Below the pieces are notes generated by a model, which was given only the letters and a program-made list of their open reading frames with translations, did not search any database and was not told the origin of the DNA. A stretch of DNA of 39,802 bases from Candidatus Hermodarchaeota archaeon (lineage in GTDB: Archaea; Asgardarchaeota; Hermodarchaeia; Hermodarchaeales; Hermodarchaeaceae), in assembly GCA_016840065.1 (NCBI GenBank), contig JAEOTB010000088.1, positions 1-39,802 of the forward strand, given 5' to 3'. The translations under genes were made by a program, and so were the position numbers. Numbering within the stretch: the stretch's first letter is position 1; each line of letters opens with the position of its first letter. Of this stretch, positions 1-7,001 are shown one piece after another.

Positions 1-396
1 CGAGTTAAAATGCTTGGACTCCCGGTTAACAAGGCTGAACAATTCCTTCTTGATGTAGAGTACCGTCTACCAAGGTCTCTTTGCTTGAATGCTGTTCAAG
101 CTGGTGATCTTGAGGGGTGTATTCAAATCCTGATGGAGAGCAGATACAAAGGCGTGTTAATTGAGGGCTGGGAAGCATATAAGCAGTTTCAAACGCTTCG
201 TGTCTTTGAGCAGAGATTCTACAAGCAAATACAGGCTACCAGTCTTGATGCGATGATTGGTTTTCCCTTCCATTTTGGTGTCATCTTGGGCTATCTTAAC
301 CTGAAGTGGTTTGAAACACTCAACCTCAAAGCTGTGATGCATGGAAAGGCTGAAAAACTCGACCCTAGCCTGATTCGCCGCGCCCTAATTCTCTAA
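1..396 (+). CDS. atpC: A/V-type ATP synthase subunit C (V0 d-like), 3' part; gene begins upstream of the window
   Basis: The frame is open from base 1 (RVKMLG...). The C-terminus GVILGYLNLKWFETLNLKAVMHGKAEKLDPSLIRRAL matches the AtpC/NtpC pattern GYLxLKxxExxNLxxxxxGK. Confidence 0.85.
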   Translation, partial: RVKMLGLPVNKAEQFLLDVEYRLPRSLCLNAVQAGDLEGCIQILMESRYKGVLIEGWEAYKQFQTLRVFEQRFYKQIQATSLDAMIGFPFHFGVILGYLNLKWFETLNLKAVMHGKAEKLDPSLIRRALIL

Positions 397-449: not shown

Positions 450-827
450 ATGGGACAAAAGCATCTTCTTTTCGATGAGAACTTAGGCACTTCGCCTAAA
501 ACCCTAAGCGGACAATTATACCAACTGCTCGAAAAGCGCGGATGGGTTTGCCACTCCGTCCACGATTTTCCCAATCTTCTAGGACAACCAGATGAAGAAA
601 TTATTGCTTTCGCGAAAGAGAATGGCTATGCTCTTTTGACCATGGACAAACGCGCAGCTTATCTAGCCCTAAAGCACAGCGTTGATATTTACCTCATCTT
701 ACATGAGAAACATACTGGTGAAACCGGTGAAACAGAGGAGTTTACCGTCGTCCATCTAGAACCATTCGCTAGCGTTCAAGCTCAAACCAGCTACCATGCC
801 GAGTTATCCACCAAGGATGAGCCATGA
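450..827 (+). CDS. DUF5615/Mut7-C-like PIN-domain protein
   Basis: Motifs LLFDENLG, GWVCHSV, PDEEIIAFAKENGYALLTMDK are typical of the small DUF5615 PIN-like family. Confidence 0.75.
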   Translation: MGQKHLLFDENLGTSPKTLSGQLYQLLEKRGWVCHSVHDFPNLLGQPDEEIIAFAKENGYALLTMDKRAAYLALKHSVDIYLILHEKHTGETGETEEFTVVHLEPFASVQAQTSYHAELSTKDEP

Positions 828-830
828 ACT

Positions 831-1790
831 ATGCCCAACTCTTCTTCCGGAAATCAATGCAAAATATGCAGTCAGCCATCGTTTTTTACACGCCCCTACT
901 CAGGGGAAGTTCTTTGCGAGACGTGTTTCCGAGCCTCCATCGAATCAAAGATACGGGAAGCGATATCTAGATGGCAAATGCTACAGCGTACAGATCAAAT
1001 AGCTGTAGCCTTCTCTGGTGGAAAGGATAGTCTCTCACTCCTCGCGGCTCTTGTTAATAACCAGCGGAGATTCCCGGAAAGTAAGATTATTGCTATCACT
1101 TTAGAGGAAGGTATAGCTGCAGCAAAAGAGCGTATGCTAACTGTACGAACGGTGACACAACTACTCGGAGTGGAACTTGTAGTCTCTTCGTACGAGGAGC
1201 TGTACTCCGTCACAATGGAAGATGTTGTAGAACGCATCCGTGAAACAGGTTATCCCTACGCACCCTGTGTCTACTGTGGCGTAATGAGGCGACAGGGATT
1301 GAATATCCTTGCCCGTCAGATAAACGCTGACAAACTCGCTCTTGGTCACAACCTTGATGATGAAGTGCAATCCATGCTTATGAACCTCATCCGTGGAGAT
1401 GTCCAGCGACTATCACGCTTAACTCCTTTTCTGCAGGAATCCTCAGCAAAATTAGTACCCCGGATCAAACCTCTATACCATATTCCCGAGAAAGATGTCG
1501 CCTTGTACGCCGATAAGCTTGAGCTCCCCATCTATGAATGTCCCTGCCCTTTTGGTGGAGAATCGCTTCGGACAGAGATTCGTCAATGGCTGAATGCTTT
1601 TGAAGAACTGCACCCTGGAACCAAGTATAACCTTTACGCAACAATCTCTAGACTTGCTAGTCCACACCAAAGTCAAGACACTGCACCATTCCGAGAATGT
1701 AATGTTTGTGGCGAGCCCACCTCACGTTCAGTTTGTGCTGTATGTGAATCGCTTCAAAGACTAGGGTTTGGAACCAGGAGAAAACTGTAA
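831..1790 (+). CDS. ncsA: tRNA 2-thiolation protein, TtuA/Ncs6/NcsA (TIGR00269) family
   Basis: N- and C-terminal CxxC zinc fingers, PP-loop SGGKDS, CVYCGVMRR, GHNLDDE, RIKPL, CPCP. Confidence 0.9.
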   Translation: MPNSSSGNQCKICSQPSFFTRPYSGEVLCETCFRASIESKIREAISRWQMLQRTDQIAVAFSGGKDSLSLLAALVNNQRRFPESKIIAITLEEGIAAAKERMLTVRTVTQLLGVELVVSSYEELYSVTMEDVVERIRETGYPYAPCVYCGVMRRQGLNILARQINADKLALGHNLDDEVQSMLMNLIRGDVQRLSRLTPFLQESSAKLVPRIKPLYHIPEKDVALYADKLELPIYECPCPFGGESLRTEIRQWLNAFEELHPGTKYNLYATISRLASPHQSQDTAPFRECNVCGEPTSRSVCAVCESLQRLGFGTRRKL

Positions 1791-1838: not shown

Positions 1839-3458
1839 CTAAGCCATTAGTAGCATGAAGGCTACGAGTAGGGTGTAAATCGCTAGTGCTTCTGCAAGTA
1901 CTACCGCAACCATAGACTTGCTGAAGGATTCAGGGCGCCTCTCCACCGAACCCGTCATCGCACTTCCTCCCCATCCGATTGCCAACCCAGCGAAGAATCC
2001 GCCAAGACCGACAGTTAGGGCTGCCGTAACTGCTACAAAGACCTGTACCATTGTCACTGCAGTACCTATTCGCATAATTACAATAAACGAAACAAGCAAT
2101 CCATAGATTGAAAGAGCTTCAGCTAATACAACACTGACAAGAGCCTTCGAGAAAGCCTCTGGGCGATATTGAAGACTCCAGCATAATGCAGAACCAGCAC
2201 TAGCGATTCCAATCCCCGCGCCTATACCTGCCAGACCAATGGCGATTCCTGCAGCAATTGATAGAACCCCTTCACTAACAGGCATAAGAGGATCCACTCT
2301 CATAATTACCATGAACGCGCAGAGCAAACCGTAGATTGAAAGAGCTTCTGCCAATACTACACTAATCATTCCTTTGCTGAAAGCCTCTGGTTTCCGTCGA
2401 ACAGTCCCTATCATAGCGTTGCCGCTGTACCCGATTCCTAAGGCCGCTCCTAGGGAAGCCAACGCGATGGCGATTGCACTCCCAAAGGCTGCCAACATCA
2501 TACCACCTGCTTGCTGAAACCGAACGGTAATGTCAAAGTCAACAGGTACATCTGATGTGACTATGAAAGTCCACACTGCACTGTAATCGGGACTGGTTAT
2601 CCCTGGAAACCAAGCGTCAGGAGTTGCTTCGAGAATCATCTGATCAAAGGGGCCTTCGATAGTGACGTTCCCTATACCTGTAAGTGTTAGGGGGGTGGTT
2701 CGTCCGAGTGCACGACCAAGACTGAAGACAAAGACGTTTTCGTCCTCTTGAACTGTAGCGTTCTCAATCAAGTATGAAAAACGGAGTAGATGATGTGAAG
2801 CATTCCACTGCATGAGGAACCGATACTCTGAAAGATTCTCAGCTATCCCCTCAGGATCAAATCCATCAATCAGGTACGTGGAGGCATTTTCAACGAGCCG
2901 AAAAGTATTGTTAAGTAATGAAGTAGTAGAAGCGATGAATGCAGCCTGTGTCCCATTGTCAACGATAGTGTCGTTGAAGCTCCAGTGCATCTGGTTCTCG
3001 TAGTCAGCAAAATTATAGATACTTAGAGAAGGCCAGTTGCTACATTGTACATAGTGTTCCATTGTATAGTTAAGAAACTCTGTTACCTCTGTTTCATTGT
3101 ATGTGTCATTGGGGTAGACATCGATGGTCGCATTTCCAACTGAACCCGTACCAAGTATGCCTGAAATTGTACCATTGAGCGTCCAGTTGAGTAGGGGCAA
3201 GTAGGGTGACGACTCGTTCAGAGGCCTCCCTTCCCACATCACGCTTACAGCGTCATCATAGGAATAACGTGCATACAAAGTAGCACTCCAGTTTTCTGCT
3301 TGAGGCACAGGAGGCTGGACCGCCGCGACACGATAGTCCTTTTGAGGTGTGCTTAGTTGTAATGGTGTAGTACCCTGGGACATTAGAACTGAGTATGGTC
3401 CAACAACTAGACAGGCGACTAAGACTAGTAATAACAGTGGCTTGCTGTTTCGGACCAT
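1839..3458 (-). CDS. atpK: A/V-type ATP synthase proteolipid (subunit K/c) with 3 hairpins, fused behind a signal peptide and a ~290-aa extracellular glycosylated domain
   Basis: Three FSKxxxxVVLAEALxIY motifs at 228-nt spacing in residues ~320-539. The N-terminus has a hydrophobic signal (LLLLVLVACLVVG). Residues ~55-270 hold 16 N-x-S/T sequons. Confidence 0.9.
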   Translation of the reverse strand: MVRNSKPLLLLVLVACLVVGPYSVLMSQGTTPLQLSTPQKDYRVAAVQPPVPQAENWSATLYARYSYDDAVSVMWEGRPLNESSPYLPLLNWTLNGTISGILGTGSVGNATIDVYPNDTYNETEVTEFLNYTMEHYVQCSNWPSLSIYNFADYENQMHWSFNDTIVDNGTQAAFIASTTSLLNNTFRLVENASTYLIDGFDPEGIAENLSEYRFLMQWNASHHLLRFSYLIENATVQEDENVFVFSLGRALGRTTPLTLTGIGNVTIEGPFDQMILEATPDAWFPGITSPDYSAVWTFIVTSDVPVDFDITVRFQQAGGMMLAAFGSAIAIALASLGAALGIGYSGNAMIGTVRRKPEAFSKGMISVVLAEALSIYGLLCAFMVIMRVDPLMPVSEGVLSIAAGIAIGLAGIGAGIGIASAGSALCWSLQYRPEAFSKALVSVVLAEALSIYGLLVSFIVIMRIGTAVTMVQVFVAVTAALTVGLGGFFAGLAIGWGGSAMTGSVERRPESFSKSMVAVVLAEALAIYTLLVAFMLLMA

Positions 3459-3474
3459 CCTTTCGCACCATCTA

Positions 3475-5082
3475 TTATATTCGCATTATGAGCATGAATG
3501 CAACGAGCAATGTGTATATTGCGAGAGCTTCTGCAAGAACGACTGGAACCATTGATTTGCTAAAGACACCGGGCTGATCCACCATAGCACGAATCATAGC
3601 CCGTCCAGCTAACCCTATGGCTAAACCAGCACAGAATCCGCCTATACCGACTGTCATTGCCGCCGCAAAGCCTACAAAGGCTGAGCTAACCGTCTCGATA
3701 GCCTCAATCCTCATTATCAACATAAAAGCTGCAAGAAGACCGTAAATCGCCAAGGCCTCCGCTAGCACAACCGCTACTAGAGATTTGCTGAAAGTTTCAG
3801 GCGCTTCGCGCAGTGATGCACAGAGCGCCTCACCACCCAGTGCAATTCCGATACCGCCACCAATAGCCGCGATGCCGATACCCAACCCACTGGACATTGC
3901 AAGGATTCCTTCAGCAATGCTAGTTGCAGTGTCTACCCTCATGATTATCATGAAGGATATCAAGAGCCCGTAAATAGCAAGAGCCTCAGCAAGAACCACA
4001 GCAACCAAGCCTTTGCTGAAGGTGGCAGGAGCTTCTGCAACGCTCTGGCAGAGAGAAGCACCAGCACGGGCAATACCGTATCCACCACCAATAGCTGCCA
4101 GCCCAACGCCAATTGCTGCGCCCATAGCCATCATCCATTGGGCGTCAAGAGTTACAGCGTCTAACCTCATCACAAGCATAAAGCTAGCAAGAAGTCCATA
4201 AATCGCGAGGGCCTCAGCTAGCACTACGGCGACTAGTCCCTTACTGAAAGATTCAGGCGCGTCTACTAAGCCACGGCAAAGGGAGGCTCCAGCGCGTGCG
4301 ATTCCTATGCCGCCACCGAGGGCAGCCAACCCGATAGCCATTGCCGCAGCCATTCCCGTCATAGCCTGTGGGATGAGTGTTACTGTATCAATTCGCATGA
4401 TTAGCATGAAGCCGGCTAGAAGCCCGTAGATTGCTAAGGCTTCTGCTAGAACAGTGCTCACTAGTCCCTTACTGAAGGTTCCTGGAGCCTTGACTAGTGA
4501 TTCGCTGAGCGCAGAGCCACTGCTTGCAATACCGAGTCCTCCGCCTAGAGTGGCTAGCCCAACACCAAGCGCTGCTGCCATACCGAGTAAACCTTGAGCA
4601 TCATAAGTGACTTGATCAATCCTCATAATCAGCATAAATGACGAAAGAAGACCATAAATCGCCAAGGCCTCTGCAAGTACGACGCTTACCAAGGATTTGC
4701 TGAAAGTTTCTGGCGCCTCTGCAATTGCTGTGCACATACTACTACCAGCCTTTGCGATACCGATTCCGCCGCCAATGGCTGCTAGACCGATAGCGAGACC
4801 CGCGGACAGGGCAATGAGTCCTTGGGCAAAACTTAGTGTATCGGACAGCCGCATGATAATCATAAAGGCACTCAAAAGACCGTAGATAGCCAAGGCTTCA
4901 GCTAATACGACACTAATCATAGCTTTGCTAAAGGTTGCTGGTTTTTCAGCGACTGTTCCTATCATAGAGCTTCCACTGTAACCTATACCGATAGCTGCAC
5001 CTAGAGCACCGAGAGAGGCTGCGAGAACCGCGCCAAGGGATGCGAGGACTGGTCCGCTGAGAAGGGGTGAGAACGAACTCAT
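3475..5082 (-). CDS. atpK: A/V-type ATP synthase proteolipid (subunit K/c), 7-hairpin concatemer
   Basis: Seven 76-aa units, each with a Gly-rich inner helix and an FSK...VLAEALAIY outer helix. The gene lies directly downstream of atpI. Confidence 0.95.
   Translation of the reverse strand: MSSFSPLLSGPVLASLGAVLAASLGALGAAIGIGYSGSSMIGTVAEKPATFSKAMISVVLAEALAIYGLLSAFMIIMRLSDTLSFAQGLIALSAGLAIGLAAIGGGIGIAKAGSSMCTAIAEAPETFSKSLVSVVLAEALAIYGLLSSFMLIMRIDQVTYDAQGLLGMAAALGVGLATLGGGLGIASSGSALSESLVKAPGTFSKGLVSTVLAEALAIYGLLAGFMLIMRIDTVTLIPQAMTGMAAAMAIGLAALGGGIGIARAGASLCRGLVDAPESFSKGLVAVVLAEALAIYGLLASFMLVMRLDAVTLDAQWMMAMGAAIGVGLAAIGGGYGIARAGASLCQSVAEAPATFSKGLVAVVLAEALAIYGLLISFMIIMRVDTATSIAEGILAMSSGLGIGIAAIGGGIGIALGGEALCASLREAPETFSKSLVAVVLAEALAIYGLLAAFMLIMRIEAIETVSSAFVGFAAAMTVGIGGFCAGLAIGLAGRAMIRAMVDQPGVFSKSMVPVVLAEALAIYTLLVAFMLIMRI
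3475..5082 (-). repeat. Intragenic tandem repeat, 7 x 228 nt (diverged at DNA level)
   Basis: The FSK-encoding segment recurs at 3557, 3785, 4013, 4241, 4469, 4697 and 4925. The same period occurs at 1918, 2146 and 2374 in the neighbouring gene. Confidence 0.9.
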
Positions 5083-5093
5083 AGTGTTTCACT

Positions 5094-7001
5094 TCAGATG
5101 ATTACAGTCCATTTGGAAGGAACGGAGAGGGGTTCAAAGGCATAGCCAGTTCCAGCGTAGAACTTCAGATATGCTTCTACCCAATGTAAACGTAGGGTGT
5201 GGATGAAGCTGAGAAGTCCTTCCATGAATAGGACAAAGATTGTACCAACAAGAAGCATGATTATGAACATCATCATACTGAGTTGACCAGTAGTAAGGTC
5301 ATCTATGATATGGAGAATCTCCGTATGCGCAACGCCACCAATAAAGAGGAACGTTTTTGCAAAACCTGCGTGGGCCATATTTAATGCGAGTATCCGTGCG
5401 TAGCTGATTGTGTTGCTTATGCTTGCGATGAGGTGCTCAAGGGCTTCCATAAAACCTTCCATTACCCCAGCGGCGAGCATGCCGCCAACTATCATAATTA
5501 TTAGTGGAAGGATGAGGAATACAAGGGCATCGATTATACCAGACCCGAGGATATTAGGTTGGAGTCCACTGGGGTCGTTATAGCTGAACCATTCCATGAA
5601 ATTAATGCCTTTGGTGAAAAGGAGGACTGCAAGGCCCCAGAAAAACCAAAGCCAGATGCCAGGTCCGAAGATAGCATGTTTCCATTCTCGTTGGCGGACC
5701 TTGTTGACGAGGTCCATGATAATAGCGATTGAGAGGTGTATGAAGCCTATAATTATACTTAGTACGAAAAGCACCCAAGTAGGAGATGCTACATTGTAGG
5801 GGAGGTTAGCAGGAGATTCGAACGCACTAAACCAGATGGGACCATAACCATGATCTGCTAGGTAAGCATCGCTGCCTGGACTTTCAGGGTGAATAAACCA
5901 GTTTACTCCGCCATCGAAGTCGAAGAACCGGAATAGTGCTAGTAATCCTCCACGCATAACCATTGCGAAGGGTGATGAGCGTAACCCGATGTATACGCTA
6001 TGGTGAATTATGTCGATTCCAAGGAATTCACCGTATAATATCCCGAAGAATATGGCGGATACAGAACATACCATTAGCATTCCTGAGCCTTGGACGAAGT
6101 AGTTCACCATTTCGCCAGCATCTACACCTTTCTTCTTTGCCAAGAACCCGAGCCCCGAGAAGAATAGGAGGAGTAAGCCGTGACCGATATCACCAAACAT
6201 TAGTCCAAATATAATTGGGAAGCCTATTGCCATGAACAAGCTGGGATCTATTTCCTTGTGGCTAGGCATACCAAAGGCGCTGGTGAGGATTTCAAAGGAT
6301 CTGATGAAGCGTGAATTCTTGAGTTTGGTCGGGGGCCTATCGACTGGTTCTTCCTCCTCGCCGTGACCGTGATGGGGTTCATGGTAATCACCTAACTCAA
6401 GGGCTACTGATTTACCGCAGTGTTTCTGAACAGCTTCTTTGAAGTCTTTAGCTTGTTTAGCGGGGACCCAACCAGCCATGATGTAGGTTCGCTTTGTTTT
6501 TCCGAAGAGAGTCTTTGTTTCCTCAAAGTGGTGTTCCCGCTGGAGTAGTTCCTCCCACGCGAAATAGAGGAGTCTTTTCTCTGATGCACGCTTTTTGATT
6601 GCCTTCTCAGCCTTTTTCCTTGCTGATTTGTCATCGGCCTCCTGCGCTGCCTCGAGAGAGCGGGTGAGGTCTGCGAATGCATCCTCCTCGCGTTTAAGGT
6701 CTTTCTCTAAGGAAGCAAGATAGGAGTCCTTAGGAGCCTCAGGAACCTCCTTAGGTTGTTTAGTACTACCTCCACGAACCACGCCCATATCTGAAATTAA
6801 GGCAGTAACTCGGGTCAGGAGATTAGAGATTCTATAATAGCGATCAGAAGCCTCTACAGGCTCTAGCTTGACATCTAGTTCCTCGCTGCGATGTTGGATA
6901 TCAATGAAATGAGCTACACCGAGACTAGCGATGAACCGGAGAGTTTTTTCTAGCTCTCTGTCAAGTACGACCGCATTGAATTTCTTCATTTTCGCTGGCA
7001 T
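5094..7001 (-). CDS. atpI: A/V-type ATP synthase subunit I (a)
   Basis: Motifs AGWVP, PPTKLKN, EIDPS, FGLMFGDIGHG, SNTISYARILAL (essential Arg) and HTLRLHWVE. Confidence 0.95.
   Translation of the reverse strand: MPAKMKKFNAVVLDRELEKTLRFIASLGVAHFIDIQHRSEELDVKLEPVEASDRYYRISNLLTRVTALISDMGVVRGGSTKQPKEVPEAPKDSYLASLEKDLKREEDAFADLTRSLEAAQEADDKSARKKAEKAIKKRASEKRLLYFAWEELLQREHHFEETKTLFGKTKRTYIMAGWVPAKQAKDFKEAVQKHCGKSVALELGDYHEPHHGHGEEEEPVDRPPTKLKNSRFIRSFEILTSAFGMPSHKEIDPSLFMAIGFPIIFGLMFGDIGHGLLLLFFSGLGFLAKKKGVDAGEMVNYFVQGSGMLMVCSVSAIFFGILYGEFLGIDIIHHSVYIGLRSSPFAMVMRGGLLALFRFFDFDGGVNWFIHPESPGSDAYLADHGYGPIWFSAFESPANLPYNVASPTWVLFVLSIIIGFIHLSIAIIMDLVNKVRQREWKHAIFGPGIWLWFFWGLAVLLFTKGINFMEWFSYNDPSGLQPNILGSGIIDALVFLILPLIIMIVGGMLAAGVMEGFMEALEHLIASISNTISYARILALNMAHAGFAKTFLFIGGVAHTEILHIIDDLTTGQLSMMMFIIMLLVGTIFVLFMEGLLSFIHTLRLHWVEAYLKFYAGTGYAFEPLSVPSKWTVII

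Follow-up and report, generated by a model that had tools for sequence, protein, structure and literature searches.

Two adjacent genes in a member of the Hermodarchaeia (Asgard archaea) encode concatenated proteolipids of seven (K7) and three (K3) fused hairpins, directly follow the stator gene atpI, and probably both contribute to a single heteromeric, H+-coupled rotor of an A-type ATP synthase. They lie in a window that makes up the entire 39.8-kb contig (C75) of a metagenome-assembled genome (MAG; G000, 2.59 Mb, 84% complete). One copy of each chain would give a ring of ten hairpins (c10), which is our best single guess at the stoichiometry and a tentative one. In a rotary ATP synthase, the size of the ring sets the ion-to-ATP ratio, and, to our knowledge, what determines that size is still being argued from a small number of mutants. 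The Hermodarchaeia offer a natural ring-size series at one locus, with sole genes of 5, 7, 8, and 15 hairpins and two-chain arrangements of 7+3, 8+3, and probably 7+4. Covalent linkage of hairpins limits the ring sizes that can be built, and the 7+3 pair is the most constraining and most informative member of the series.

Two Complete Proteolipid Genes after atpI

A preliminary description of the window had placed two proteolipid genes after atpI with gaps of 11 and 16 nucleotides (nt), and the open reading frames and coordinates bear this out to the nucleotide. Its seven and three hairpins of 76 amino acids (aa) on an exact 228-nt period are confirmed by the ATP-synt_C (PF00137) stretches in both products and by the spacing of the VLAEAL motif, which starts at residues 59, 135, 211, 287, 363, 439, and 515 of K7 and at residues 368, 444, and 520 of K3. 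The ion-binding Glu of this motif sits in the second helix of the hairpin and, as had also been claimed, is kept in all ten, always in the context E-A-L-(A/S)-I-Y. The shorter gene is where that description fell short: the three hairpins are there, and residues 1-318 ahead of them, which had been overlooked, are a signal peptide and an ectodomain and not proteolipid. AlphaFold2 (AF2) predicts six helices over residues 319-538, and the cytoplasmic loops of the K3 hairpins are basic (RRKPE, QYRPE, and ERRPE). With their PF00137 matches, their carboxylates, and their location directly after atpI, both products have the features of A/V-type proteolipids. K7 and K3 are read in different frames, with a stop codon and the 16-nt spacer between them, and the arginine motifs SYARILAL and TLRLHWVE can be read directly in atpI. 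In the whole MAG, matches to PF00137 above the 24-bit cutoff are the ten hairpins of K7 and K3 and no others; the MAG also has a single atpI and a single A/B pair, at the start of contig C36.

The hairpins share 39-70% identity in pairwise protein comparisons and 45-68% at the DNA level, their synonymous codons are largely scrambled, and Tandem Repeats Finder found no 228-nt tandem array. These hairpins are therefore ancient and not of a kind that an assembler could collapse or inflate. For relatives, the 19 genomes of the GTDB class Hermodarchaeia, which belong to two genera, were covered, and metagenome contigs from ENA, JGI, and Logan were searched in addition. The 7+3 layout is found again in JAEOSX010000064.1 from "Candidatus Hermodarchaeota archaeon YT_063" (95% identity) and in the JGI/Logan contigs L028 and L029 (K7 81% identical), and several more contigs hold both a 540-aa K7 and a 518-525-aa K3, which brings the layout to at least five independent assemblies at 81-95% identity. 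Ratios of nonsynonymous to synonymous substitution (dN/dS) between the window and contig L014 are 0.038 for K7, 0.020 for the K3 hairpins, and 0.235 for the ectodomain, and the 7+3 layout is under strong purifying selection. A Logan unitig bridges the junction between the K7 stop and the K3 start (3240-3508) with zero differences, and neither joints nor indels were observed. The Logan contigs, however, are short unitigs that come from a single marine-sediment study and probably from the very sample assembled here, so by themselves they cannot confirm the repeat count; no RNA dataset was listed as containing the stretch. Repeat-rich genes do break in the assemblies of relatives (over two contigs in G012 and by a frameshift in L026), but an artifact here, whether a misassembled array or a single ten-hairpin gene (K10) split by a sequencing error, can be dismissed with near certainty, given the low nucleotide identity among hairpins, the empty repeat search, the agreement of independent assemblies, the unitig across the junction, and the fact that K7 closes with a last-type hairpin while in K3 the signal peptide and the 290-aa domain lead into a first-type hairpin. 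Both genes are thus complete, and no helix is split.

The two apparent fragmentations in relatives are not two-chain designs either. The "4+11" pair in L026:4105-7490 (GCA_012974965.1) is a 15-hairpin gene called as products of 298 and 829 aa; its break lies inside transmembrane (TM) helix 1 of hairpin 5 with a one-base overlap, as a frameshift or sequencing error would leave it. The split gene of G012 is merely broken over two contig ends.

The features at this end of the contig are collected in Table 1. The ATPase genes form two convergent groups, one strand carrying ...A, B ... C/d and the opposite strand atpI-K7-K3; the remaining ATPase genes are off the contig, A and B within C36:1-3780. 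The neighborhood of the PIN-like gene and C/d (AC39) recurs in contigs L025 and L028.

Table 1. Features of the window from its first nucleotide through atpI
Feature	Positions	Strand	Evidence or remark
Rotor subunit C/d (AC39), 3' end	1..396	+	PF01992 match at 34-381; convergent with atpI-K7-K3
PIN-like gene	450-827		between C/d and K3
TtuA-like tRNA thiolation gene	831-1790		between C/d and K3
K3, three hairpins and N-terminal ectodomain, 539 aa	1839..3458	-	three ATP-synt_C stretches, E 2.9e-43
K3 residues 319-539 and stop, three hairpins (first, middle, and last type)	1839..2504	-	all with Glu; three PF00137 stretches
K3 residues 29-318, exported ectodomain, PIG-T/Gpi16-like beta-sandwich fold	2505..3374	-	sequons, AF2, fold searches
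K3 residues 1-28, signal peptide or uncleaved N-terminal TM helix	3375..3458	-	hydrophobic window centered on 10-20
Spacer K7/K3, 16 nt	3459..3474	-	GGTG 8-11 nt before ATG
K7, seven fused hairpins, 535 aa, 14 TM helices	3475..5082	-	seven ATP-synt_C stretches, E 1.9e-101
Spacer atpI/K7, 11 nt	5083..5093	-	
atpI, stator subunit I/a of A/V-type ATP synthase, 635 aa	5094..7001	-	PF01496 V_ATPase_I, E 1.3e-54

Hairpin Number among Relatives

In every genome of the class in which the gene is assembled, a multi-hairpin proteolipid occupies the same place, Mrp - cysS <> atpI - K. Seven genomes and one contig of G003 have a single 1147-aa gene with 15 hairpins (K15), sister genomes have a single gene of 630-644 aa with 8 hairpins (K8), and the 7+3 pair is present among class genomes in G000 and G002, with G001 partial. 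The metagenome contigs extend this range. Sole five-hairpin genes (K5) are found in L025:2753-3931 (ENA, 392 aa) and L031:585-1745 (JGI, 386 aa), both complete with first- and last-type hairpins and directly after atpI, and a sole seven-hairpin gene occurs within the K8 lineage (L030). A K3 of 225 aa that has no ectodomain follows a 537-aa K7 in L034:5163-7482 (JGI) and a 616-aa K8 in L032:6001-8574 and L033 (JGI). From these bare K7+K3 and K8+K3 pairs it follows that the two-gene design is older than the ectodomain fusion. The ectodomain form also exists with four hairpins, in L027:1013-2824 (ENA, 2.9-kb contig), where the two middle hairpins are ~80% identical and represent a recent duplication of the middle hairpin; the long chain upstream ends at the contig edge after at least hairpins 3-7, and the sum would be 10 or 11.

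In G003, a complete cysS-atpI-K locus occurs twice, on contigs C282 (L017) and C318 (L018), once with K15 and once with K8. The cysS and atpI trees assign the two loci to separate clades, and the bin probably mixes two populations. No K3-like sequence was found in the 358 nt downstream of its K8 (G003b).

The preliminary description had taken the ring stoichiometry to be fixed by the genes, with the expectation that hairpin counts would add up to a conserved total. No such total was found, as the loci come to 5, 7, 8, 10 (7+3), 11 (8+3), probably 11 (7+4), and 15, and with sums this variable the claim is unsupported. The sole five-hairpin chain is the clearest case. It makes no ring on its own and must oligomerize, to 10 hairpins as two copies or 15 as three; chains of this family therefore oligomerize, and the number of hairpins at a locus does not equal the size of the ring.

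K7 and K3 as Probable Partners

In a tree of the individual hairpins, hairpin 1, hairpin 2, the penultimate hairpin, and the last hairpin are positionally orthologous across K15, K8, K7, and K3, and both K7 and K3 possess a first-type and a last-type hairpin of their own. The two are therefore complete genes that arose by whole-gene duplication and internal loss, not the halves of a K10. K3 carries a lineage-wide signature (AEALSIY, the QYRPE loop, and a C-terminal LLMA) and is 76-81% identical across lineages, whether or not the ectodomain is present. Wherever it was found, across at least five lineages, it lies directly after a long chain. For the bare form this is K7 in L034 and K8 in L032/L033, and for the ectodomain form it is the K7 of L014, of L028/L029, and of the window. 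The two chains are thus distinct, conserved paralogues in one operon, as in known heteromeric rings; a monomeric, single-chain rotor does not agree with two genes that each have first- and last-type hairpins.

The pair also travels together. Trees of cysS and atpI put L028 (L028:2392-7578, set against window positions 1839-7001) in the other genus, and its atpI, taken in thirds, is local in type throughout. Its K7, however, is 81% identical to the K7 of the window and only 67-70% identical to K8 and K5 chains from the clade of L028, and its ectodomain-bearing K3 is also of the window type. This discordance between rotor genes and flanks indicates that the K7/K3 pair moved between genera as a cassette.

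The long chains themselves differ according to whether a K3 accompanies them. Where K3 is the partner, nearly all middle inner helices of the long chain read GGGxGIA, whereas every sole-gene chain has GAGxGIA outside its penultimate hairpin, and a change in helix packing appears to have accompanied the acquisition of K3. F-type rings become larger when Gly is replaced by Ala in the inner helix (PMC5376962). By analogy, rings with K3 may be tighter, although this is a weak inference. The ends of the chains have diverged as well. Different conserved positions of the sole-gene consensus have changed in the two last hairpins, W23L and two loop Arg in K7 and P45S in K3, and in the first hairpin a change in TM1 is seen only in K3. 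This pattern fits what would be expected if a homodimeric two-chain ring had become a heterodimer with two distinct seams. As for the coupling ion, the Na+ motif E[STQ][STQ]xxY (bioRxiv 10.64898/2026.10.01.756066) is absent from all ten hairpins, and H+ coupling is predicted for that reason.

The Ectodomain of K3

K3 begins with a hydrophobic leader at residues ~5-28, which AF2 models as a helix (5-28) at low predicted local distance difference test (pLDDT) scores; free paralogues of the ectodomain have a similar leader. The ectodomain proper spans ~290 aa and has 16 NxS/T sequons, as against 3.5 ± 1.6 in shuffled sequences. Its AF2 model (pLDDT 75.9, predicted template-modeling (pTM) score 0.75) has its best structural match in the luminal domain of PIG-T (7w72_T), with a VIA Z of 13.0 over 236 residues at a root-mean-square deviation of 4.7 Å. 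The Z values to three T chains of glycosylphosphatidylinositol (GPI) transamidase are 13.0, 12.5, and 11.7, the next fold stands at 8.6, and ribophorin I/OST1 reaches 6.2-6.4. Foldseek gives the PIG-T match a probability of 1.0, and an Atlas search gives a TM score of 0.60 to a PIG-T cluster; the matched region covers K3 residues of about 55-320. At the sequence level, no Pfam match, the PIG-T/Gpi16 profile (PF04113) included, was obtained at E values up to 5 for the 11 family members searched, and a language-model search returned weak leads only, at 0.80 or less. The family is small, with four 50%-identity clusters among 1.8 billion proteins.

How the ectodomain is joined to the rotor is a matter of a few residues. 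In the full-length AF2 model, residue 316 closes its last strand and residue 319 already opens the first rotor helix, which leaves no flexible linker. Proteolipid hairpins have their N-terminus on the non-cytoplasmic side of the membrane, and the signal peptide, the sequons, and the point of fusion are therefore mutually consistent. The linker-less join to the inner helix of hairpin 1 would accordingly hold the ectodomain above the extracellular opening of the ring and make it rotate along with the ring. The domain may act as a cap, as a plug, or as a steric limiter to one K3 per ring. It evolves faster than the hairpins, with the dN/dS of 0.235 given above and ~41% identity between lineages, and it is dispensable, being absent from the K3 of L034 and L032.

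Free paralogues of the ectodomain (43-50% identity) include a copy in the same genome (C87:3171-4118). They form the N-terminal domain of a surface glycoprotein specific to the Hermodarchaeia (P0006-P0012 among its members) that is present in one copy in 18 of the 19 genomes of the class. Its plan is a signal peptide, a PIG-T/Gpi16-like N-glycosylated domain, a DUF11/TRAP-beta-like Ig domain (PF05753 matches, E 1e-6 to 1e-10), a C-terminal TM helix, and an RFRRRIF tail. That an Asgard archaeon has a protein with PIG-T-like and TRAP-beta-like parts may be relevant to how the machinery of the endoplasmic reticulum lumen originated.

A Proposed Rotor of Two Concatemers and Its Size

The model that we propose builds on the observed gene structure, conservation, paralogy, fold, and co-inheritance of the two chains. 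The atpI-K7-K3 operon would encode the membrane sector of the organism's sole A-type, H+-coupled ATP synthase, with a ring built of two covalently concatenated proteolipids, K7 giving seven ion-binding hairpins and K3 giving three. K3 would be a dedicated minor member of the ring with its own seam hairpins and basic loops facing subunit d. Historically, a ring of two identical long chains would have undergone gene duplication, after which one copy shrank and left two different chains and two seams. Later, in the lineage of the window, K3 would have gained its signal peptide and its PIG-T-like, heavily N-glycosylated ectodomain, fused with no linker onto hairpin 1 where its inner helix ends on the outer side, and rotating over the mouth of the ring. 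That the rotor is heteromeric and H+-coupled and contains both chains is well supported. With one K7 and one K3, it would have 10 hairpins and would pass 10 H+ per turn or 3.3 H+ per ATP. This 1:1 ring is the most economical arrangement because it keeps two chains and two seams, and the known variants then differ least (10, 11, and 11). It is the best single guess among the stoichiometries, and the whole statement of a heteromeric rotor that is also a c10 ring is to be taken as similarly provisional. A bolder form of the proposal is somewhat more doubtful still: an obligate 1:1 two-concatemer c10 ring, genetically fixed and the smallest known of the A/V type, with a spinning PIG-T-like domain at its extracellular mouth. 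It would be an independently evolved Asgard counterpart of the asymmetric V-ATPase rotor, with its single-copy special proteolipid and glycosylated luminal cap, and part of a series that was repeatedly re-geared among close relatives (K5, K7, K8, K15, K7+K3, and K8+K3).

Several points weigh against ten hairpins. We know of no solved A/V-type ring with fewer than 12 (Thermus has 12; Enterococcus and yeast have 20). The simplest multiples of the sole chains (3x5, 2x7, 2x8, and 1x15) cluster at 14-16, with 13-17 hairpins the ring would be curved as in the relatives, and the hairpin sum is not conserved across 7+3, 8+3, and probably 7+4. The Gly/Ala difference in the inner helices falls at the "x" position of GxGxG, where its effect on ring size is uncertain, and the seam argument is based on about six lineages. 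Finally, the MAG is 84% complete.

Units of 7 and 3 can be combined into rings of 10, 13, 14, 16, 17, and 20 hairpins, and the larger sizes define the alternatives. Two copies of K7 with one K3 would make a c17 ring (5.7 H+ per ATP), with the bulk of the ectodomain restricting K3 to a single copy. This arrangement would stay near the curvature of 14-16 hairpins inferred for the relatives from K15 and from multiples of K5, K7, and K8 (15, 14, and 16), has a precedent in the c17 ring of the Burkholderia pseudomallei N-ATPase (PMC5376962), and is consistent with the attachment of the ectodomain at the inner rim, a position that favors a single K3 in each ring. A c17 ring is nevertheless unlikely: a seam between the last hairpin of one K7 and the first of another would be required, yet the last hairpin of K7 has diverged from the sole-gene type, the 8+3 relative would become c19 and the 7+4 relative c18, and GGG in place of GAG suggests altered, probably tighter packing. 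A second possibility, for which we also see only a small chance, is that several K3 copies serve as "small change" toward a preferred size, in K7 with two K3 (c13) or with three (c16). Any size of 12 or more can be built from 7 and 3, and c13-c16 is the range of the relatives and of Methanopyrus kandleri (13). Such rings would, however, crowd two or three 35-kDa glycosylated ectodomains onto one ring mouth and need a seam between K3-last and K3-first hairpins, and the four-hairpin variant of K3 would shift ring size by two or three hairpins at once.

More improbable is that the two chains do not share a ring at all, but form separate, alternative rings with two gear ratios (for example, two K7 as c14 and four or five K3 as c12-15), or that K3 stays outside the rotor and merely anchors the ectodomain. 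Having its own first and last hairpins, each chain could in principle close on itself, and a sole K7 does exist in another lineage. But only 16 nt separate K7 from K3 within one operon, K3 has a long partner wherever it was found and does exist without an ectodomain, the Glu and loop motifs of K3 are held under a dN/dS of 0.02, and the packing motif of the long chains changed along with the presence of K3. An alternating ring of two K7 and two K3 with all 20 sites active is very improbable as well. It would use seams identical in type to those of the 1:1 ring and match the size of the Enterococcus, Pyrococcus, and eukaryotic V-type rings, and the solved sequences closest to the hairpins are V-type c'' and c (E about 1e-12), from 20-hairpin rings, followed by Thermus K and Enterococcus hirae NtpK. 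On the other hand, 20 sites per 3 ATP (6.7 H+ per ATP) is above every known ratio, and the ring would be bigger than the 15-hairpin single-chain ring of the sister species. With so few sizes possible from 7 and 3, one mass measurement would give the stoichiometry. The mass of the ring would also show whether the change from GAG to GGG in the inner helix re-gears the enzyme.

Comparison with Known Systems

Fused rotors and heteromeric rings are both already known, and the K7/K3 pair combines the two kinds. Subunit K of the A-type ATP synthase of M. kandleri has 1021 aa and 13 hairpins and is deduced to form a monomeric rotor (bioRxiv 10.64898/2026.10.01.756066). As in that protein, a single polypeptide encoded directly after atpI unites many A-type hairpins, and their ion sites are kept. 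In contrast, the Hermodarchaeial design has two genes of seven and three hairpins, neither of which is plausibly a whole ring, has a separate origin in the Asgard archaea, and gives one chain an exported domain. The K15 and K8 rotors of sister genomes are closer, with an identical locus, the same VLAEAL site, and orthologous first, second, penultimate, and last hairpins. They are sole genes with GAGxGIA, whereas the window pairs a long GGGxGIA chain with a short specialized one.

Among heteromeric rings, that of the Acetobacterium woodii F1Fo enzyme contains nine single-hairpin c2/3 subunits and one double-hairpin c1 (bioRxiv 10.64898/2026.10.01.756066). It shares with K7/K3 the placement of proteolipid paralogues side by side in an operon and the presence of one minor member. 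It is, however, of the F type, and its minor subunit lacks one ion site. K3 has lost none, with Glu in three of three hairpins, and both Hermodarchaeial partners are long concatemers.

For the ectodomain, the comparison was made with one transamidase subunit, PIG-T/Gpi16 (7w72_T and 7wld_T). The likeness is in the fold, and the free paralogue adds a signal peptide, a luminal or extracellular domain, and one C-terminal TM helix; the identity is only 11-12%, and there is no match to the Pfam Gpi16 family. Exported domains on rotor subunits are also found elsewhere, as PKD domains fused to multi-hairpin ATP-synt_C proteolipids in Thermoplasmata and relatives (P0047, P0048, P0050, and P0053). These proteins likewise have a signal peptide and an exported beta-rich domain N-terminal to a multi-hairpin rotor subunit, but the domain is PKD rather than PIG-T-like, and they are sole subunits with partly lost sites rather than the minor chain of two. 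Concatenation of rotor subunits and fusion of ectodomains are commoner than the literature suggests. Among the distant matches is also an 11-hairpin proteolipid of 901 aa from Candidatus Gracilibacteria in the candidate phyla radiation (P0045). In the literature, we found no description of a Hermodarchaeial rotor, a two-concatemer ring, a PIG-T-like rotor domain, an Asgard multi-hairpin proteolipid, or an Asgard PIG-T. New here are the sole five- and seven-hairpin genes, the ectodomain-less K7+K3 and K8+K3 pairs, the four-hairpin ectodomain form, and the transfer of the cassette.

The broadest resemblance is to the eukaryotic V-ATPase. Its ring is c8 c' c'', half of the ion sites have been lost, and the glycosylated luminal domain of Voa1/Ac45 rotates with the ring, with its TM helix inside. 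Here too, the ring would be asymmetric, with single-copy special members and a glycosylated domain on the non-cytoplasmic face. In the V-ATPase, however, the luminal domain is a separate protein, while the K3 ectodomain is PIG-T-like, has no shown relation to Ac45, and is confined to one subclade. The data point to analogy or convergence, not ancestry. A glycosylated 35-kDa domain that is rigidly fused to a rotor and turns outside the cell would be mechanically surprising, and the only published parallel known to us for a rotating glycosylated domain is Ac45/Voa1 itself. Its occurrence in an Asgard archaeon would thus provide a tractable analogue of the Ac45/Voa1 arrangement.

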